This document shows, in pieces, positions 19,354-32,293 of a stretch of DNA of 37,733 nt (position 1 is its first letter; the number at the start of each line of letters is the position of its first letter). The translations under genes and the position numbers were made by a program. Source of the stretch: Pyrinomonadales bacterium (GTDB lineage: Bacteria > Acidobacteriota > Blastocatellia > Pyrinomonadales > Pyrinomonadaceae). The notes under the pieces were generated by a model. The model ran no database searches and was not told where the DNA came from. It saw only the letters and a program-made list of their open reading frames with translations. The stretch lies in contig JBBRUA010000001.1 in assembly GCA_038248245.1 (NCBI GenBank), forward strand, positions 1-37,733, in the 5' to 3' direction.

Positions 19354-19392
19354 GCAGTAGTGAGAAATAAGAAGACGGAAAGCAGGAATTCT

Positions 19393-20064
19393 ATGAAAAC
19401 ATTAGTCATCACACTGGTTTTGTTATTTAGCTCGTCGGCATTTGCTCAGCGTTCGTTCGACCTGAAGGACGCTTCTCCGTACTTTGACATCAAGGTCAAG
19501 GTCGCAAAATGCGACGATATGTACTGCTCCGGCAAGGCGACATTCTCGTTCTATAAGAAGGACGGGACTACGCCTTATCAGGTGATCAGCTTGCCCGACA
19601 CGTCGATTCAGTTAGACGAGGGCGGCGACGCTCTGGTTAATACGACAATGCTGTATGACAAACAGAGCGTCGTAAATATCGGCGATTATAATTTTGACGG
19701 CATGGACGATGTCGCACTTTGTAACGGTAATAATGGCCCGTATGGCGGCCCGTCTTACTCCGTCTATCTATCGTCAAAGGCCGCTAAGAAATTTGTTTAT
19801 AACCCGGCCTTTTCCAAATCGCTTGTGAGTTTAGGTATGTTCGAAGTCGATAAAGACAAAGAGCAGCTCACGACATTCAACAAAAGCGGCTGCTGCTGGC
19901 ACATCACGGAAAAATACTCTGTCGTCGCCGGGAGGCCTGTGAAAGTTTGGGAAGAGATCGAAGACGCCACGATCGCGGACGAGACAAAGGTCAAAATAAC
20001 AACCAAAACCCTCGTTGGCGGTAAGTGGAAAACGACAAGCAAATTCGTCAAACGTGAGCAGTAG
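19393..20064 (+). CDS. Secreted hypothetical protein with FG-GAP-like Ca-binding loop and 'SGCCWH' motif
   Basis: ATG at 19393. Signal peptide 'MKTLVITLVLLFSSSAFAQ'. Contains 'GDYNFDGMDDVALCNG' and 'FNKSGCCWHITEKY'. Confidence 0.7.
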   Translation: MKTLVITLVLLFSSSAFAQRSFDLKDASPYFDIKVKVAKCDDMYCSGKATFSFYKKDGTTPYQVISLPDTSIQLDEGGDALVNTTMLYDKQSVVNIGDYNFDGMDDVALCNGNNGPYGGPSYSVYLSSKAAKKFVYNPAFSKSLVSLGMFEVDKDKEQLTTFNKSGCCWHITEKYSVVAGRPVKVWEEIEDATIADETKVKITTKTLVGGKWKTTSKFVKREQ

Positions 20065-20091: not shown

Positions 20092-20136
20092 GGTCCCGGG
20101 ATCGCCTATTTTGGCAATTCCGGGATCTTTTGTTTT
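20092..20136. terminator. Terminator hairpin between convergent genes (19393-20064 on + and PAAR on -)
   Basis: ggtcccgg (20092-20099) pairs with ccgggatc (20120-20127) for 8 bp including 1 G.U, and is followed by ttttgtttt on the + strand. Confidence 0.55.
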
Positions 20137-20632
20137 AGCCACCGATAAGAACCGTCATTTCGCCTTTCGTAATTGAATTTGGCGGGCCGATCGCCTCGAG
20201 TATCGTGTCTCCCATGCGTCCAGCGGGCAGATTATTAATCATTACTGTCGCCGAACCGGAAATATCGACGCCCGGGCCGTGAGGCGGAACGGGCGAAGGC
20301 ACGGCGCATGTATGAATATCAGCTCCGGCTGAGGCCGCCGTAATTGCACTCGACATCGCGGAAAGAGCGGCGGCTTTCGCGGCTTGTTCGGCAGCGACGG
20401 CGGCAGGTGCTCCCGGCGTACCGGCAGCGGCAACCGTTGCGGCGACCGCCGTTTGGATGGCAGCGTCCGCGGTCGACTTTGCCGCTTGCAACGCCGCCGC
20501 CGCCGCCAACGGTATACCACGCCACGCAGTCGCAAAACCGATCAGTACATTCGGGCTACCCGGCCCCACCGACAACGTCGGCGGCAAAGGATGTGCGGTC
20601 GTATCAACTAAAGCTCGTGCGGCTGGCGGCAT
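20135..20632 (-). CDS. PAAR-domain spike-tip protein with Ala-rich internal insertion
   Basis: The N-terminus is 'MPPAARALVDTTAHP...GSPNVLIG' and the C-terminus is 'HTCAVPSPVPPHGPG...VMINNLPAGRMGDTILEAIGPPNSITKGEMTVLIGG'. SD GAGGAA lies upstream. Confidence 0.85.
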   Translation of the reverse strand: MPPAARALVDTTAHPLPPTLSVGPGSPNVLIGFATAWRGIPLAAAAALQAAKSTADAAIQTAVAATVAAAGTPGAPAAVAAEQAAKAAALSAMSSAITAASAGADIHTCAVPSPVPPHGPGVDISGSATVMINNLPAGRMGDTILEAIGPPNSITKGEMTVLIGG

Positions 20633-20688: not shown

Positions 20689-21378
20689 CTAGAATCGTTC
20701 GAACGAATCCGTGCGTCTCAGGATTTTCAAGCTTCCGAATTTTGGTCCGGACGAAAGTAGCTGTACGTCTTGCAAAAGAGTCGGTTTCCACAAACTGAGT
20801 GCTCCTGGGAGTGCAGCTTCCTTAACCTCAAGGTCTTCGGCTGCGTTGATGTAATGCATTGAGAACAGAATGTTTTGCGAGGTAGAGGGTTCCGTCTTAC
20901 TTGATGCATCCTTGACGAAATAGGGATTGTATTCGTCGACGGGCTCCGGTAGTTCGAATTTTCCCGACAACTCTCCTCCGGGCTCGACTTTAGTGGCAAA
21001 CGGAATGAGCCGCATCTCGACGCGGCGCGTTCGCGGCAGTGCGGCGAGGCCTTTGACGATGTGAAGCGTCCTGTCGTCCCGGAGCAATATATACACCGGC
21101 ATTGGAGCCTCTGCATAGCTGCCGTCCGCCGCAAACTCCCACAGCCGGTCAAAAACGTATATCGGACTTTTTGTAGTATTTTTGAGTTTATAGTTTACGG
21201 ACAGTCGCCCATTCTCAACACCTATGTCGGCGTTCAGCGAAACTCTGCCATTTTCTCCGTCTCGTTCTTCCATCATGGTAATGTTCCTTGTGCCGACTTC
21301 GGCGACGTTGGCGCGGCAGCCCGCGAATTCCCCTATAAGGCAGATCGTAATCAGTATCGTACTAACTTTCTCGTACAT
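20689..21378 (-). CDS. Hypothetical lipoprotein (candidate immunity protein for the VgrG toxin domain)
   Basis: The ATG lies 2 nt after the vgrG stop (TAATTATG). Signal peptide plus lipobox 'EFAGC'. No recognisable domain. Confidence 0.7.
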   Translation of the reverse strand: MYEKVSTILITICLIGEFAGCRANVAEVGTRNITMMEERDGENGRVSLNADIGVENGRLSVNYKLKNTTKSPIYVFDRLWEFAADGSYAEAPMPVYILLRDDRTLHIVKGLAALPRTRRVEMRLIPFATKVEPGGELSGKFELPEPVDEYNPYFVKDASSKTEPSTSQNILFSMHYINAAEDLEVKEAALPGALSLWKPTLLQDVQLLSSGPKFGSLKILRRTDSFERF

Positions 21379-21380
21379 AA

Positions 21381-24044
21381 TTACAATGTCGTATGGTCTC
21401 TTCGACGTGGAATGCCACGGTCGTCTCGATACTCATTGTCGCGATCAATAACATTGCTCTCAGCAATGGCCTGTCCCGGATGGGCTGGATCGGGCGTGTC
21501 ATCATCGCGTGCGTGAGCCCCGTCATCTGCGTGGGCCATCTCGTGATGCAGGCCAACGTCGGCCGGACGATCAATGCTCGGATTTGCAGATGTCGGTAGC
21601 GGCGTGCGATTATAACCGATCTCGCTATCCGTGCCGTTGCCTGTTCCTGTGCCACCGCCTAATGCCGGCTGGCCACTAGCAGCTGCGTCTTGATTATTAG
21701 CGAAATTCGTCACGTTGCCGCCCGTCGTTTCGCTGATGCCGACGGTGTGGCCGCTGTTATTTATGCTGTTCAGCGTGTTCATGCCTGTCGGATGGTTTGC
21801 CATCTCCGTCAAGTCAGCAAGCACCTGATCCTGGAAATCCGGGTTCGCCGGGTTTGGGCGGATCACTATGCCGTTTCCAACAGTGACGCTTCCATCTGCG
21901 TTTCTGGTAGTTGCAAATGGAGGTGCGTGTTGACCTGTTAGGTTACGTCGTCTGCGGCCACCACCACCACCACTTCGCGGACGATCTAGATAACCCGGCT
22001 CTCCGGTGTCCGCCACTTCCGCATCCAGTGGATCATCGATCGCGGCTGGTGCGGTACCCGCTGCGGCCCCGCCCGAATTGATCTTCACAATCGGGCCAGA
22101 GATCGTCACGCCTGAAAGATCGACCGTAATAAAACTGCCGCCGACCTTTAGACTGATATTTGTCAGTGCCTCAAGCGTGATCGACTGAGCATTGACCTCG
22201 TTCTTACCGGTAACGACGATCTGTCGGCCGCCTTTGACCTCTTCGACTAGATCGCCTTTGATTCCTTCGTTGAGTTTGCCGTCAATTCCAATATACTTAT
22301 CGCCTTTCACATGTAGGTCGTAGTTACCGCCGACGGAGATTGCGAGGTTGCCGCCTGGCTGATTGTCGCTCCGCATGCCGATCGATTCCTGGCGATTGCC
22401 GCCGCAGGTTTCGTACATCGAGCCTTTCACTCTGAGGTCATATCGCTTTTGCGATCGGATGAAAACCTGCTCTTTGCCTGCCTTGTCCTCGAAACGCAGT
22501 TCGTTGAATCCTTTGCCGTCGTCGGGTGAGGTTCGCGTTTTGATGTACGTCAGCGTTTTGAATTTCGGCAGTTCGTAGTGCGGCATCGTCTCGGGGTTGT
22601 ATGCCGAACCGATGATGATCGGCTGATCGGGGTCGCCGCCGAGAAAATCGACGATGACCTCTTGCCCTACACGCGGAATGAACATCGTGCCCCATTTATT
22701 GCCCGCGATGTTGGTCGCGACGCGCAGCCAGCATGACGAGGTCGCATCGAGCTGACCGAGTCGGTCCCAGTGGAAATGCACCTTCACGCGGCCATATTTG
22801 TCGACAAAGATCTCTTCGCCGGACGGACCGGTGACGGTCGCAGTCTGGCTGCCGTAAACGATCGGCTTTTCGGTCCGGCGCAACGGACGGAACGGAGCCT
22901 GTCCTTCGCCCTGCGGAATACTGGTGAAACTCACGGAGTAAGCATTCGAGATCGCGTCATCGGAAACGTAACCGGGCGATTGGACGGCCTCGGTCCTGAC
23001 GGTAACAAGGACATGATTGCGGTTATTCGCGGCGATCGGATGCGTGGTCAACTGAAAACGATATCCGGCGGTTATCGCACAGCAATCGGCACTGCCGGGA
23101 CTACTTTTATAGGCAACATCGATCTCCTCCTGACGGATCCCCACCGTCCGTGTGCGGTCGTCAAAAACTTTCTGCAAAACGCTTGGCTGTTCGCCTCCGC
23201 CGGAGTCTATTCCGTCAAAGCGTTTCGCATATTCGCCCGGATGATCGTAAACCTCGATGTCCTGATTACCGCCGATATTAAAGCGGCTCATCTGGACGGC
23301 CTCAAGCGAATTCGTCGGGAGCTGGAAGTTATAATCGCGAAGCGTAAATTTACCGGCCCGCACCTTGTTCGCGACCCGCCACGAAGTCACACGTCCCGAC
23401 CATTCTTCCTGATCTGCCGCAATGTCTTCGGCGAAAGGTATCTCCGCTTTCGTCGGACATGGACGATGCGATCCCGGCGTATTGCCAATCACCAGCCGGT
23501 GCGAATCGGCGGTGTGTTCGAAATAATAGTAGATTCCTTCTTCTTCCATCAGCCGCGAGGCGAAGTTGAAGTCGGATTCGCGATACTGAACGCAGTAATT
23601 TCGCGGTTCGAATGTTCCCTGGATCTCATCGTCGTACTCGTAACCGTCAAAAACCCGGCGCAAGATCTCCGGCACCGATTGATTCTGAAAGATGCGGCTT
23701 TGCGAGTTTTGTGAGAGTAGCCAGAATTCCGGTACGAGTTCTGCCTTGTACTTTGAGAAGCGCTCGTTGCGATTGCCCTGCGTGAAATCGACGCAGATGC
23801 CATTAAAAAAGCGTTCGGCACCGTCGGCCTGCGTCACGCTGACGGTCATTTTTTGTCCCAGCAATTGCTGCGGATCGATGAGCGTCGGTTCGTTGCCGGC
23901 CTCCTCTTCCTCGTGCAGCATCTCAAGCTCAAAACGAAAAAGCTGCGAAATACCCTCGGCCGCACGGATCCGTTTGATCAGCAAAAAATCCGCCGCCAGC
24001 GGCGTCGCCAAACTTAATAATCTACCTTCTTGCGTCGTTGACAT
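21381..24044 (-). CDS. vgrG: T6SS spike protein VgrG (TssI) with C-terminal HExxH metallopeptidase-like extension
   Basis: The gp27/gp5-like core includes 'WGTMFIPRVGQEVIVDFLGGDPDQPIIIGSAYN' and beta-helix repeats ending at 'PIVKINSGG'. About 235 extra residues follow and contain 'GLHHEMAHADDGAH'. Confidence 0.95.
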   Translation of the reverse strand: MSTTQEGRLLSLATPLAADFLLIKRIRAAEGISQLFRFELEMLHEEEEAGNEPTLIDPQQLLGQKMTVSVTQADGAERFFNGICVDFTQGNRNERFSKYKAELVPEFWLLSQNSQSRIFQNQSVPEILRRVFDGYEYDDEIQGTFEPRNYCVQYRESDFNFASRLMEEEGIYYYFEHTADSHRLVIGNTPGSHRPCPTKAEIPFAEDIAADQEEWSGRVTSWRVANKVRAGKFTLRDYNFQLPTNSLEAVQMSRFNIGGNQDIEVYDHPGEYAKRFDGIDSGGGEQPSVLQKVFDDRTRTVGIRQEEIDVAYKSSPGSADCCAITAGYRFQLTTHPIAANNRNHVLVTVRTEAVQSPGYVSDDAISNAYSVSFTSIPQGEGQAPFRPLRRTEKPIVYGSQTATVTGPSGEEIFVDKYGRVKVHFHWDRLGQLDATSSCWLRVATNIAGNKWGTMFIPRVGQEVIVDFLGGDPDQPIIIGSAYNPETMPHYELPKFKTLTYIKTRTSPDDGKGFNELRFEDKAGKEQVFIRSQKRYDLRVKGSMYETCGGNRQESIGMRSDNQPGGNLAISVGGNYDLHVKGDKYIGIDGKLNEGIKGDLVEEVKGGRQIVVTGKNEVNAQSITLEALTNISLKVGGSFITVDLSGVTISGPIVKINSGGAAAGTAPAAIDDPLDAEVADTGEPGYLDRPRSGGGGGRRRRNLTGQHAPPFATTRNADGSVTVGNGIVIRPNPANPDFQDQVLADLTEMANHPTGMNTLNSINNSGHTVGISETTGGNVTNFANNQDAAASGQPALGGGTGTGNGTDSEIGYNRTPLPTSANPSIDRPADVGLHHEMAHADDGAHARDDDTPDPAHPGQAIAESNVIDRDNEYRDDRGIPRRRDHTTL

Positions 24045-24115: not shown

Positions 24116-24757
24116 TCAATGTCTCGTCGCATGCGTTGCACCCTCACCATCACGGTACGGATGTGGATTCGGATCGACCCGCGGATCATGAACGACGCCG
24201 TCCGCGTCACGCCACGAACTTGGATTGTTGTATTGGGCTATGATCATCCCTTCTCGGTTGTAAACGACAACCGGACCTTCCCACTCGCCAAATTCGATCG
24301 CCGATTCTTCGCAGGAGAATAGTTGGCACGATTCGACCGTGAGATACGCCTGAACTTCGCGGGCAGCGGTCACCTCGGCGTGAGCATTCATAGCCATTTG
24401 CCGGCAAAGTTCGTCGCCGTCGCCGAATTCGGTCAGATCCGTCTCAGCGGCGTGGCATACGAACAGGATGATCCGGTCGATCTTGTCCCGCAACTGTTGG
24501 AACATATGAATCGTCCGGAAACTGATCATATCACCCGTAAATTGAATGGCCGACGTGCGCTCGTCGCGAACGGTGACGCCGTGAGCCATGATGTATAGAT
24601 TACGGATGCCGTTATGTTCATCGGCGATCGTGAGCGTACGGGCGATAAAATCACGCATACGCGTGTGCTCATCAACCTCGAATGCGATTGTCCCAGCGGT
24701 CGAAAGCGGAGTTCGGCCTATCAGGTTAGTGTCATGTGCGATCACGTTTATCGGCAT
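24116..24757 (-). CDS. Uncharacterised cytoplasmic protein with CHAT/DUF4347-like His...Cys arrangement
   Basis: ATG at 24757 follows GGAG. There is no signal peptide. 'NLYIMAHG' (H59) and 'RIILFVCHAAET' (C101) each sit at the end of a hydrophobic strand. Confidence 0.7.
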   Translation of the reverse strand: MPINVIAHDTNLIGRTPLSTAGTIAFEVDEHTRMRDFIARTLTIADEHNGIRNLYIMAHGVTVRDERTSAIQFTGDMISFRTIHMFQQLRDKIDRIILFVCHAAETDLTEFGDGDELCRQMAMNAHAEVTAAREVQAYLTVESCQLFSCEESAIEFGEWEGPVVVYNREGMIIAQYNNPSSWRDADGVVHDPRVDPNPHPYRDGEGATHATRH

Positions 24758-24929
24758 AATTTATGCTCCAATTATTTATCTCCCAGATATTCCATCGTTG
24801 AATTGCTGAACGCTCCCTCGCTTTGTTTTCGCAGTGAATCGATCATCGAGCAACCAACGCCGGAGAAGCAAAAAGATCCGATCATCGCGAGGTTCTTGCG
24901 ATATGGGGTATTCATAATTCGAAAAACAA

Positions 24930-27665
24930 CTAGACGATCTGATAACTAAAATTCCCGTCCTCGCCCGTCGCGACATGGACGCTTTGCAGTCCGTCACCCG
25001 TCGCCATCCGCGAAAGCACCTCGCCCGACATTTGCGGTAAAAGCGTTCCGGTCAGGATGTTATAAACGTTGCGGGCACCGCTGTCGACATCGGTGCAGCG
25101 TTTCGCCACTGTCTCGATGACTGAATCGTCGTAGGTGAATTTCGCTCCATGATTGTCCATAATACGGCGTTCGATCTTCTTGAGCTGGAGTTTTACGATC
25201 AGCCGCAGAATGTCATCGGAGATCGGGTAATAAGGAACTGTGACCATGCGGCCGAGCAACGCCGGTTTGAACGCCTGATTCAACTCCGGTTTGACCGCGT
25301 CGACGAGGCCGTCGGGCAAAGGTTTTGTATCCGGATCGGCACAGAGCTTCATGATCGTGTCGGTGCCGACATTCGACGTGAGCAAGATGATGCAGTTCTT
25401 GAAGTCGATCTCGCGACCCTCGCCGTCTTCGAGCACGCCTTTATCGAACACCTGAAAGAAAAGCTCCATCACGTCCGGGTGGGCCTTTTCAACTTCGTCG
25501 AGCAAAACGACGGAATACGGTTTGCGTCGCACTGCCTCGGTGAGAACTCCGCCTTCGCCATAGCCGACGTATCCCGGAGGCGAGCCTTTGAGACTCGAAA
25601 CCGTGTGTGCCTCCTGATACTCGCTCATGTTGATCGAGATCAGATTGCGTTCGCCGCCGTAGAGCGATTCGGCGAGGGCGAGGGCAGTTTCGGTTTTACC
25701 AACGCCGGACGTACCAACAAGTAGAAACACGCCGATCGGACGTTTCGGATCTGTTAATCCGGCTCGTGAGGTGCGAATTCGCTGCGCGATCGCCTCGAGT
25801 GCATGATCCTGGCCGAGAACGCGTTCCTGCAATGTCGCTGCAAGGTTCAACACCGCATTTATCTCGTCCGCGACCATTTTGCCGATCGGAATTCCGGTCC
25901 AGCCCGAGATCACCTCGGCCACTGTCTGCCCATTCACCACCGGTTGCATTAGCGGGTCATCGCCCTGAATTTGCTTCAATTCCGCATTAGCCTGCTTCAA
26001 TTCAGCCTTGAGAGCCTCGTTGTCGACCGGCTCGGCGACGGCCGTTGGAGCTTTGGTTTCAATCGCGGCCTCTTCACCTTCCGCCGGAGCCGTCGCCTCA
26101 GTTTTAGCATTTGAAGGCTGAGCATCGAGCCTTGTCATCTCGAGTTTGAGGCGAATGTTGCGAATTCTGTCCGTCAATTCACGCTCTTTCGCCCATTGTT
26201 CATTCAGTTTCGCAAGCTCTGCGTCCGTCTCCGTGCGTTTGGCGATCAGCTCGGCGAGCCGTGTGTCGTGACCGGCACCGGTGACCTGTTCGCGTTCAAG
26301 AGCTTCGATCTCGGATGTCAGATTCTGGATCCGGCGAGTTGCGTCCTCGACCGAAGCAGGTGTTGCACCCTGACCGATTGCGACTTTCGCACAGGCCGTA
26401 TCAAGGACCGACACACTTTTATCCGGCAACTGGCGGCCGGTAATGTAGCGAGCGGAAAGCTTAACGCTCTCGACGATCGCTTCGTCGAGGACGCGAACGT
26501 TGTGATGCTCTTCCATTTTCCCGGACAGGCCGCGCATCATTGCTATTGCCTTTTCTTCGTCAGGTTCTTCGATCTTGACGACCTGAAAGCGGCGGGCTAG
26601 GGCCGCGTCCTTCTCAAAATATTTTTTGTATTCCGCCCAGGTCGTTGCCGCGATCGTGCGAAGTTCGCCGCGTGCCAAGGCAGGTTTGAGCAGATTGGCG
26701 GCGTCGTTCTGTCCGGCCGCTCCGCCCGCACCGATCATCGTGTGGGCCTCGTCGATAAACATAATTATAGGCTGCGGCGAAGATTTAACCTCGTCGATCA
26801 CCGATTTCAAACGCTGTTCGAACTCGCCTTTGATTCCCGCACCGGCCTGCAAAAGCCCGAGATCCAAGGATCGCACCGAGCAATTCCTAAGCGGTTCCGG
26901 GACATCACCGATGGCGACACGTGCGGCAAATCCCTCAACTACCGCAGTTTTACCGACGCCGGCCTCACCTGTCAGGATCGGATTGTTTTGCCGGCGGCGG
27001 GTGAGAATATCGACGATCTGCCTGATCTCGCCGTCACGCCCGAGGATCGGATCGATCTTCCCGGCCCGAGCTTTCGCAGTCAGGTCTTCTGTGTATTGAT
27101 CAAGTGCCTTCGTTTTGCCCGCAACGCCGCTCGCGACCGGAGCTCCGTCGGATGTCGCGGCAGTTTCGCCGAGAGCGACCGCGTCACGTTCCTCGGCCGA
27201 ATCCGCTGTTATCTCAGCCAGCTTTGTCTGCAGAGATTCAGCGGAAATGTGTGCGAATTCGCGAGAGATCTCACGAGCTATCCGTGCGTAATTCTCATTC
27301 AGAACTAGCGCAAGGATCAAATGTCCGGAGCGGACGCGGGCTGCACCAAAATCGACGGAAGCCAGCAACCACGCGTCCTGTATCCATCGCGGCAGCCGGT
27401 CGCTGAGGCCGGGCGTACGCGAATTGCCACTCTTTAGCCGATCAAGCGCGTTACTGACATCTTTCGTGAGACGGTCAATATTGACCTCGTAATGATTACA
27501 GATCTTGTGCAGATCGGTGTCGTCTTGCTCGAGCAGTTTCGCCAAAATATGCTCGATCTCGACATCATAATTCGTCCGCGAAAGACAAAGCCCGGCCGCA
27601 CCCTCAAGTGCGTTTCGACTCGTGTCATTCAATCTACCGACCAAAGATTTAAGATTTACGTTCAT
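24930..27665 (-). CDS. clpV: T6SS AAA+ ATPase ClpV (TssH)
   Basis: The protein has a Clp N-domain and two Walker A motifs ('GEAGVGKTAV' and 'GTSGVGKTE'). The middle coiled coil and 'RPIGVFLLVG' are present. Length is 911 aa. Confidence 0.95.
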   Translation of the reverse strand: MNVNLKSLVGRLNDTSRNALEGAAGLCLSRTNYDVEIEHILAKLLEQDDTDLHKICNHYEVNIDRLTKDVSNALDRLKSGNSRTPGLSDRLPRWIQDAWLLASVDFGAARVRSGHLILALVLNENYARIAREISREFAHISAESLQTKLAEITADSAEERDAVALGETAATSDGAPVASGVAGKTKALDQYTEDLTAKARAGKIDPILGRDGEIRQIVDILTRRRQNNPILTGEAGVGKTAVVEGFAARVAIGDVPEPLRNCSVRSLDLGLLQAGAGIKGEFEQRLKSVIDEVKSSPQPIIMFIDEAHTMIGAGGAAGQNDAANLLKPALARGELRTIAATTWAEYKKYFEKDAALARRFQVVKIEEPDEEKAIAMMRGLSGKMEEHHNVRVLDEAIVESVKLSARYITGRQLPDKSVSVLDTACAKVAIGQGATPASVEDATRRIQNLTSEIEALEREQVTGAGHDTRLAELIAKRTETDAELAKLNEQWAKERELTDRIRNIRLKLEMTRLDAQPSNAKTEATAPAEGEEAAIETKAPTAVAEPVDNEALKAELKQANAELKQIQGDDPLMQPVVNGQTVAEVISGWTGIPIGKMVADEINAVLNLAATLQERVLGQDHALEAIAQRIRTSRAGLTDPKRPIGVFLLVGTSGVGKTETALALAESLYGGERNLISINMSEYQEAHTVSSLKGSPPGYVGYGEGGVLTEAVRRKPYSVVLLDEVEKAHPDVMELFFQVFDKGVLEDGEGREIDFKNCIILLTSNVGTDTIMKLCADPDTKPLPDGLVDAVKPELNQAFKPALLGRMVTVPYYPISDDILRLIVKLQLKKIERRIMDNHGAKFTYDDSVIETVAKRCTDVDSGARNVYNILTGTLLPQMSGEVLSRMATGDGLQSVHVATGEDGNFSYQIV

Positions 27666-27716: not shown

Positions 27717-28115
27717 TCAATTTCGCATTCTTTTTAAACCATTTTTCAATAGTGGCTCATGAAAATTCAACAACAATCCAAGAGGTAAATTCGCGAGCCG
27801 CAGGTATGAAAGTAGTTGTGCCTCGTGGACAGGAATAATTTTGGTCACCGCTTTTAGTTCGACGACGACAATACCTTCCACAACAATATCCATCCTATAC
27901 CCACAATCAAGTTTTACATCTTTGTAAACCACGGGCAGTGCAACCTGTCGAAGAAAACCTAAGCCTTTTTGAGACAGTTCGTAACATAGACACTCCTCAT
28001 AGGCAGATTCCAATAGGCCGGGACCGAGTACACGATGGACATCGATCGCACCACCGATGATGGCCTCTGTTATCTCATTTAATCTCTGTGTCTCCGTGTC
28101 TCTGTGGTTAAACAT
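27717..28115 (-). CDS. GxxExxY protein (PD-(D/E)XK nuclease-fold family)
   Basis: '[13 protein letters not shown]' carries the GxxExxY motif. '[17 protein letters not shown]' is a D...E-x-K-like core. The N-terminus is 'HRDTETQR'. The ATG abuts the tssG stop (TAAATG). Confidence 0.9.
28083..28109. repeat. Right arm of the 27-nt inverted repeat (inside the 5' end of the GxxExxY gene)
   Basis: The reverse complement reads aaccacagagacacggagacacagaga. This segment encodes the 'NHRDTETQR' N-terminus. Confidence 0.85.
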
Positions 28116-31734: not shown

Positions 31735-32223
31735 TTAAACCTTCTTGTTTGCCTTGACGTCGTATCCGGCCTTGATGGCACCACCTAGCGAACCGTCCAC
31801 CTTCTGTTCTTTATACTCAAACTCGACCTTTGCGAAGTTGAGCGAGATCTGATCGGTCGGCCCCGAACCGCCGCCTGCCGAAGCACCTGTCTGGTAGGAC
31901 GACACCAAAACATCGGTAAATGTTACCTTCAGGTATTCCTGTTGATCCGTACCTGCTTTGCGGCAGACCAGGGTTGCCTTCTTGATGTGTTCGCCGGTCG
32001 CACACGTGAGCATCAGTTTTGGCGATGCCTTGTTCATATTCATAACAAAGTGAAAGTCCTGCATCGAAACCTTACCCGATCCGCCGCCGCCGCCGGCACT
32101 AAATGAACCGGCATTCGATGCGCCCCATGAAAAGGACTGGAGATCGATGTCGCCCTTATGTTTGCTGTCTGCGCTTTCGCCGTCGATACCGTCTAACTTT
32201 AAGAAAAAATCTACTGATGCCAT
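31735..32223 (-). CDS. hcp: T6SS tube protein Hcp (TssD)
   Basis: ATG at 32223. 'MASVDFFLKLDGIDGESADSKHKGDIDLQSFSWG' is the canonical Hcp N-terminus. Length is 162 aa. Confidence 0.9.
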   Translation of the reverse strand: MASVDFFLKLDGIDGESADSKHKGDIDLQSFSWGASNAGSFSAGGGGGSGKVSMQDFHFVMNMNKASPKLMLTCATGEHIKKATLVCRKAGTDQQEYLKVTFTDVLVSSYQTGASAGGGSGPTDQISLNFAKVEFEYKEQKVDGSLGGAIKAGYDVKANKKV

Positions 32224-32293
32224 TTTTTTATGCTCCTTTAATATCAATCTATAAACTTGCTAATGACCGTTTCATCAGCCACATCATTAAGAC

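Follow-up and report, generated by a model that had tools for sequence, protein, structure and literature searches.

A conserved His-Cys protein is encoded between clpV and vgrG

We analysed a 37,733-nucleotide stretch of DNA from a Pyrinomonadales bacterium (Acidobacteriota; assembly GCA_038248245.1, contig JBBRUA010000001.1, positions 1 to 37,733), here called the window, and focused on one gene of its cluster for a type VI secretion system (T6SS). The gene (24116..24757, minus strand) lies between clpV and vgrG and encodes a 213-amino-acid (aa) protein. Its open reading frame (ORF) and translation, its homologues, AlphaFold2 (AF2) models and hhalign alignments together point to a putative Tce2-like cysteine protease of clan CD. 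Read directly from the window sequence, the ORF begins with ATG and is preceded, 8 nt 5' of the start codon, by a GGAG Shine-Dalgarno ribosome-binding site (24766..24769, minus strand). The protein has a computed mass of 24.0 kDa and a computed isoelectric point (pI) of 5.0, and inspection of its N-terminus (MPINVIAHDTNLIGRTPLST) revealed no hydrophobic signal-like stretch.

Two motifs define the protein. The segment 'NLYIMAHG' carries His59 (codon 24581..24583, minus strand; LYIMA-H-G), the predicted catalytic histidine, and 'RIILFVCHAAET' carries Cys101 (codon 24455..24457, minus strand; IILFV-C-HAA), the predicted nucleophile, 42 residues further on. The AF2 models place each residue directly after its strand, His59 following strand E51-57 and Cys101 following strand E93-99. 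An original prediction made from the DNA letters had described a 213-aa ORF lacking a signal peptide, with both codons at exactly these positions and each motif terminating a hydrophobic strand, and in all these respects our results agree with it.

Two further motifs flank this core. Near the N-terminus, H-D-x-R-L-x-G (residues 8-14; 24716..24736, minus strand) forms a family signature, with D9 present in 253, R11 in 251 and G14 in 245 of 265 family sequences, the set on which all conservation counts were based. Towards the C-terminus lies W-R-D-x-x-G-x-x-H-D-P-R (residues 182-193; 24179..24214, minus strand), whose D-P-R element occurs in about 87 of the 265 sequences, all of them from the clade encoded between clpV and vgrG. 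Confined to that clade, this tail was missing from orphan remote members and likewise absent from Tce2, and it may serve for docking or recognition.

The His-Cys dyad is nearly invariant in a large family

Homology searches returned 81 close homologues, none of which carried a functional name. Those bearing organism names came from Pyrinomonadaceae or other acidobacterial metagenome-assembled genomes, and the named relatives include Acidobacteria OLB17. An exhaustive profile search retrieved 450 cluster representatives (50% identity) at E ≤ 1e-3, 197 of them at E ≤ 1e-10, and most were stand-alone proteins of 170-200 aa. His59 was retained in 257, Cys101 in 261 and Gly60 in 251 of the 265 sequences, while Asp9, Arg11, Gly114, Ala122, Gln136, Trp159 and Gly161 were, like Gly60, conserved about as well as the dyad. 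Both dyad residues were invariant in the 72-sequence family alignment (A3). The retention of both residues among homologues is what the original prediction would have led one to expect, and because homologues are numerous and the dyad is nearly invariant, the His-Cys feature is well beyond chance.

At about 22-28% identity, remote members were orphan genes whose neighbourhoods were unrelated; one had an orphan hcp about 9 kb away. The wider family likewise consisted mostly of orphan genes, many of them away from any T6SS genes. Some members reach about 300 aa through N-terminal extensions consisting of PG_binding_1, a LysM-like region or a recurrent 'MIKESVGN' domain. Such domains ahead of the His-Cys domain were observed in P0220 (PG_binding_1, Pfam E 1.5e-10), P0186, P0210, P0130, P0133, P0135, P0145 and P0211. 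They hint that part of the family acts at peptidoglycan or close to it, or that the extra domains are used for loading.

The protein is predicted to adopt a caspase-like fold

DUF4347 (PF14252) was the sole recurrent Pfam signal of the family. For the 213-aa protein the match covered residues 33-133, spanning both dyad residues, with 15.1 bits and E 0.02; as the gathering threshold is 24.6 bits, the protein is not a member by the Pfam criterion. Among its relatives, DUF4347 matched 8 of 35 and 7 of 42 family members (best E 4e-7), and two relatives carried a precomputed PF14252 annotation. The Pfam model of CHAT (PF12770) gave no match to the protein and matched one of 35 relatives, at E 0.025.

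Structure prediction was performed twice, and both models showed an alpha/beta fold. The first, built from 35 sequences, had a predicted local distance difference test (pLDDT) score of 76, and the second, built from 72 sequences, had a pLDDT of 89.5 and a predicted template-modelling (TM) score of 0.85. When searched against the PDB with Foldseek, both models matched chain G of 9qpe best, which is Tce1 in the cryo-electron microscopy structure of the Hcp3-Tce1 complex (E 4.1e-4, TM-scores 0.57/0.67 for the first model; E 1.8e-4, TM-scores 0.54/0.64 for the second). The next matches all belonged to clan CD: two CHAT proteins (Csx29, the protease of Craspase, and DdvA, an anti-sigma factor), caspase-9 and the cysteine protease domain (CPD) of MARTX toxins. 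In MEROPS, clan CD is characterised by a hydrophobic strand followed by HG and then a second hydrophobic strand followed by (A/V/S)C, and the family pattern fits this 'HG...(A/V/S)C' arrangement. The original prediction had called a clan-CD, CHAT- or DUF4347-like His-Cys fold, and this call is supported by the DUF4347 signal and because the Foldseek neighbours are Tce1, CHAT proteins, caspase-9 and the MARTX CPD. We therefore assign a predicted caspase-like fold (clan CD; related to CPD, CHAT and DUF4347) with a predicted His59-Cys101 dyad, and we hold this model-based assignment more firmly than any statement on function made below.

Known clan-CD proteases (the C80 CPD of MARTX and TcdB, the CHAT domains of Csx29/Craspase and DdvA, and caspases) share with the 213-aa protein the alpha/beta fold and a His and a Cys that end adjacent hydrophobic strands. 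Foldseek probabilities to them were 0.9-1.0, with TM-scores of only 0.3-0.4. The protein differs from them in having no tetratricopeptide repeat or other partner domains, and its likeness to the CHAT domain of Csx29 was seen only in the structural comparison. Peptidase C80 domains process themselves within large toxins and respond to InsP6 by way of a basic pocket; membership of this family was rejected on architecture, as the protein is an acidic stand-alone chain of 213 aa (pI 5.0; TM-score about 0.4) and not an autoprocessing domain of a large toxin. T6SS adaptors and chaperones (DUF4123, DUF1795/Eag, DUF2169) were dismissed because no such Pfam match appeared at E ≤ 1. NCBIfam and PADLOC scans of the protein returned no match, leaving a defence-system assignment unsupported. 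The A3 profile also showed a weak single-blade likeness to designed beta-propellers through the FGEWEG hairpin, which we judged to be mere shared secondary structure.

The protein is a probable remote homologue of Tce2

PA0256 and PA2372 of Pseudomonas aeruginosa were pulled down with Hcp3 in vivo, and PA0256 contains DUF4347 and was reported to be nearly species-restricted (Howard et al., mBio 2021, PMC8262886). The names Tce1 (PA0256) and Tce2 (PA2372) were later given to them as putative cysteine-protease effectors of the H3-T6SS (Paracuellos et al., Nat Microbiol 2026, PMC13323088), and both have been described only in P. aeruginosa. Tce1 has 310 aa with H186/C240 and a 100-residue N-terminal extension and is encoded outside the T6SS cluster, while Tce2 has 190 aa and 21 kDa with H65/C115; both co-purify with Hcp3, and two Hcp3 hexamers enclose one Tce1 monomer (PMC13323088).

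The Tce2 sequence was recovered with three peptide tags from the primer table of PMC13323088, which were placed where the paper locates them within a query of 190 residues, with X everywhere else. This query retrieved six proteins of 186-190 aa. One of them, P0266, agreed with all published descriptors and was identified as Tce2: it has 190 aa, starts with MNYLFVPFTS, carries His65 in 'LYVIAHG' and Cys115 in 'KLYVCNSG', and ends with EARQRVP. Two contig scans with the PA2372 primer sequences (Supplementary Table 6) gave no match, probably because these primers derive from a synthetic gene with optimised codons. When metagenomes were scanned with the native clpV3 flank primer, 57 unrelated ClpV-type loci emerged, and none contained a Tce tag or any member of the family.

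Comparison of the family alignment A3 with an alignment of Tce2 orthologues (A4) by hhalign gave a probability of 78.7% and E 1.7e-5 over 104 columns. The resulting register paired His59 with His65 and Cys101 with Cys115 and also aligned the C-terminal beta-hairpin. Pairwise BLASTP of the protein against Tce2 was non-significant (E 0.15), and its two best segments were the His motif (LYIMAHG/LYVIAHG) and the Cys motif. These results suggest that the 213-aa protein is a distant acidobacterial homologue of Tce2.

Like its acidobacterial counterpart, Tce2 is a small stand-alone protein (190 versus 213 aa; 21 versus 24.0 kDa), and the motifs correspond (LYVIAHG and KLYVCNSG in Tce2; LYIMAHG and ILFVCHAA here). 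Tce2 lacks the HD-R-L-G motif at the N-terminus and the WRD...DPR tail, both of which are present in the window protein, and functional data exist for Tce2, whereas the window protein is known here from sequence and models. Tce1 was the best structural match of both AF2 models and carries DUF4347; since the HMMER profiles of the family miss the Tce1 chain, the link to Tce1 rests on structure and the shared DUF4347. With its 310 aa, its N-terminal extension and its location outside the T6SS cluster, Tce1 is unlike the 213-aa protein encoded in the clpV-vgrG slot and is resembled instead by the extended family members of about 300 aa. The split of the family into in-cluster and orphan or extended members thus mirrors that between Tce2 and Tce1.

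The clpV-vgrG slot is conserved from Acidobacteriota to the H3-T6SS

The block of minus-strand genes around the protein is a T6SS cluster comprising tssM (C-terminal part), tagJ/ImpE, tssA, tssB, tssC, hcp, tssE, tssF, tssG, a PDDEXK_3 insert, clpV, the gene for the 213-aa protein, vgrG-M91, a 229-aa ORF and a PAAR gene. The upstream neighbour is clpV (tssH; 24930..27665, minus strand; Pfam AAA_2, AAA_lid_9 and ClpB_D2-small). The downstream neighbour is a vgrG (21381..24044, minus strand; Phage_GPD, Phage_base_V, Gp5_trimer_C and Peptidase_M91; TIGR03361) whose product has Peptidase_M91 as its C-terminal domain and also bears a GGGGGRRRR linker. Pfam thus bears out the neighbours, and the linker described in the original prediction is real. 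The hcp gene (31735..32247, minus strand; Pfam T6SS_HCP E 7.5e-41) encodes the presumed carrier of the protein. Spacers of 172 bp towards clpV and 71 bp towards vgrG surround the gene, and those of relatives measure 17-76 bp. Scanning for promoters and terminators found no consensus in either spacer, and regional counts were at or below shuffle expectation.

The window, seven acidobacterial loci related to it and the Tce2 locus all show the order tssB-tssC-hcp-tssE-tssF-tssG-clpV-[X]-vgrG, where X is the gene in question. Every in-clade homologue sampled lay between clpV and vgrG (L001-L003, L004-L006, L007-L008, L068, L075 and L076), at identities from 100% to 34%, so the association with vgrG holds across the sampled clade. 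At L076 the clpV-X-vgrG trio stood apart from tssG and was followed by a PAAR-Rhs effector. The original prediction had held that the slot upstream of vgrG is usually occupied by adaptor genes; in the related loci, DUF4123 genes lie downstream of vgrG instead.

In P. aeruginosa, clpV3 is PA2371 and vgrG3 is PA2373, and therefore PA2372 lies between them. The recovered Tce2 locus (L077) reads tssB-tssC-hcp-tssE-tssF-tssG-clpV-[Tce2]-62 aa-vgrG. The two proteins thus share the slot tssG-clpV-[X]-vgrG, with an immunity gene adjacent to neither. The loci differ in that the VgrG3 next to Tce2 is plain, while the VgrG in the window bears an M91 toxin, and in that the Tce2 system uses Hcp3, whereas the acidobacterial host (Pyrinomonadaceae) has an Hcp1-like Hcp, although the gene order around the 213-aa protein matches that of the H3-T6SS. 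Neither in the window nor in the syntenic loci examined is the gene flanked by an ORF large enough for an immunity protein, and the spacers leave no room for one.

Other genes of the cluster

Several neighbouring genes were also characterised. Between tssG and clpV lies a 132-aa gene of the PD-(D/E)XK type (27717-28115, minus strand; PDDEXK_3, Pfam E 1e-42) with a weak Cas4-like PADLOC match. It is missing from this place in L001, L004, L007 and L068, where clpV directly follows tssG. Directly 3' of vgrG-M91, a 229-aa ORF (20689-21378, minus strand) matched no family and has an N-terminus resembling a lipoprotein signal (…LIGEFAGC). From its sequence and position it is probably a periplasmic immunity protein for the M91 toxin; at syntenic loci, the equivalent place is taken by ORFs of 196-270 aa that lack annotation.

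The PAAR gene (20135-20632, minus strand) encodes 165 aa, with a long Ala-rich N-terminal region and the PAAR motif at residues 117-165. It matched Pfam PAAR_motif with 36.5 bits (threshold 27) and the NCBIfam T6SS PAAR model with only 20.9 bits (cut-off 124). Just past the PAAR gene and convergent with it, an XAC2610-related protein with a signal peptide is encoded on the plus strand (19360-20064; NCBIfam NF047539, E 5e-28). The family takes its name from XAC2610, the immunity protein of the Xanthomonas type IV secretion system, and the window gene may be an orphan immunity gene.

The protein is a candidate Hcp-loaded cargo effector

From the ORF with its conserved dyad and predicted fold, the probable remote homology with Tce2 and the shared gene order, we consider it fairly probable that the 213-aa protein is an Hcp-loaded cysteine-protease cargo effector of the T6SS, directed at a cell that is probably non-self. 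Hcp loading, secretion, protease activity and the nature of the target cell are all inferred by analogy with Tce1 and Tce2. On that analogy, the gene would probably be co-expressed with the T6SS core operon, and its product would be wrapped in hexameric Hcp rings as lumenal cargo, for which a size of 24 kDa is compatible. The cargo would then be fired into target cells, where the dyad would cleave a substrate. A non-self cell, possibly a eukaryotic microbe, seems likelier than a sister bacterium because no immunity gene is adjacent and because Tce2 is toxic to yeast and not to E. coli. As a fallback, the original prediction had named a novel cargo effector; its cargo part is supported by the likeness to Tce1 and Tce2, while the novelty falls away, the class having been published in 2021 and 2026.

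Several observations weigh against this interpretation. The homology to Tce2 is remote, with an hhalign probability of only 79% and a non-significant pairwise BLASTP, and the TM-scores to Tce1 are moderate (0.54-0.67, root-mean-square deviation 5-6 Å). Searches of PDB sequences with the protein and with the family profiles A2 and A3 (HMMER, E ≤ 10 for the profiles) returned no Tce1 match, although 9qpe was present in the set. The nearest solved relative of the window Hcp is Hcp1/PA0085 (E 6.8e-42), with Hcp3 at E 1e-10, and Val in the window Hcp replaces Thr59 of Hcp1, which has been linked to the binding of cargo. The catalytic His is absent from a few in-slot homologues (P0237, P0084, P0085 and P0063). 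Synteny stays strict as identity falls from 100% to about 34%, even as the effector modules downstream change, which looks more like an accessory component than a strain-variable effector. For Tce1 and Tce2 themselves, H3-T6SS-dependent secretion was not demonstrated in vitro (PMC13323088).

The same synteny invites the alternative that the protein is an accessory or regulatory T6SS component of the producer cell, as a protease or pseudo-protease that chaperones or gates Hcp or VgrG loading, or that processes a T6SS protein, with the WRD...DPR motif as its dock. In each of the eight sampled loci, which range from 100% to 34% identity, the clpV-[X]-vgrG arrangement was strict even though the C-termini of VgrG and the effector or adaptor genes downstream differed, and the trio stayed intact even away from tssG (L076). 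A similar gene occupies the equivalent slot of the phylogenetically distant H3-T6SS. The His has been lost repeatedly with gene and slot kept (P0237, P0084 and P0085), the C-terminal motif is limited to the in-slot clade, and no immunity gene is present. Against these points, P. aeruginosa mutated in tce1, tce2 or both has as many sheaths as the wild type, while sheaths are absent from hcp3 and vgrG3 mutants (PMC13323088). Tce2 inhibits yeast growth in a manner abolished by C115S (PMC13323088), retention of the dyad by over 97% of sequences suggests that the protein works as an enzyme, and many orphan members lie away from T6SS genes. On balance we regard an accessory role as unlikely. A broader form of this idea strikes us as distinctly improbable: that Tce2-like clpV-vgrG proteases are an ancient, near-core T6SS component across phyla (the H3-T6SS of Pseudomonadota and the Hcp1-like systems of Acidobacteriota) whose main job lies in the producer. 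There, loading of the Hcp tube or the spike might be licensed or proof-read by them, or they might process a T6SS protein, for example at the Gly/Arg linker of toxin-bearing VgrGs, with the WRD...DPR tail serving as a docking motif. An antibacterial effector, acting for instance on the peptides of peptidoglycan or on some conserved protein of bacteria, with immunity encoded elsewhere or needless in the producer, would accord with the 2-log fall in E. coli survival that PA0256 (Tce1) caused in the 2021 study (PMC8262886). It would also accord with the PG_binding_1 domain (as in P0220) or LysM-like extension of some members, and with the antibacterial-type modules of the cluster (VgrG-M91 with the lipoprotein-like ORF, the PAAR protein and the XAC2610-type immunity-like gene). 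The later study, however, found neither Tce1 nor Tce2 to be markedly toxic in E. coli, nor any immunity gene evident nearby (PMC13323088), and no immunity-capable ORF flanks the gene in the window or the syntenic loci. We therefore give this explanation low odds.

The favoured idea of the original prediction was a dedicated maturation protease that cuts the neighbouring VgrG at GGGGG-RRRR and thereby frees its M91 toxin domain. Some clan-CD proteases do cleave after basic residues, and the linker GEPGYLDRPR-S/T-GGGGG-RRRR (VgrG residues about 686-700) is common to the three toxin-bearing VgrGs of the window, L001 and L007. The domain beyond it varies, being M91 in the window and L007 and non-M91 in L001. 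At L068, where the VgrG linker reads GGGGGGRKWG without RRRR, the adjacent family member P0237 is without the catalytic His, a single anecdotal co-variation. Homologues with an intact dyad, by contrast, also adjoin VgrGs that have neither linker nor toxin: the VgrG next to P0081 (L004) is plain, with 713 aa, and is followed by a DUF4123 adaptor; that next to P0014 (L076; 66% identical to the window protein) ends in ...GVLVKIN; and Tce2 adjoins the plain 668-aa VgrG3. The idea is unsupported because slot and dyad persist beside such plain VgrGs and beside the non-M91 extension of L001. The preponderance of orphan genes in the wider family also argues against a role in VgrG maturation, and the nearest characterised relatives bind Hcp, not VgrG. 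VgrG maturation is thus very improbable, and we return to an Hcp-loaded cargo effector as the preferred explanation.

Implications for the family

These results indicate that a His-Cys protein related to Tce2 occupies the clpV-vgrG slot throughout a clade of soil Acidobacteria, within a T6SS that uses another Hcp type. The family comprises at least 450 sequence clusters with both in-cluster and orphan members, which considerably widens the Tce class and extends it into Acidobacteria and into a large family that had so far gone unannotated. The signature HD-R-L-G ... HG ... C ... FGxWEG can be used to find further members. For the window gene, the annotation "hypothetical protein" can be replaced by "putative Hcp-loaded cysteine-protease effector", and the hypothesis of VgrG maturation may be abandoned. 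The finding also raises the question of why a cargo would be so stably wired into the T6SS core operon.

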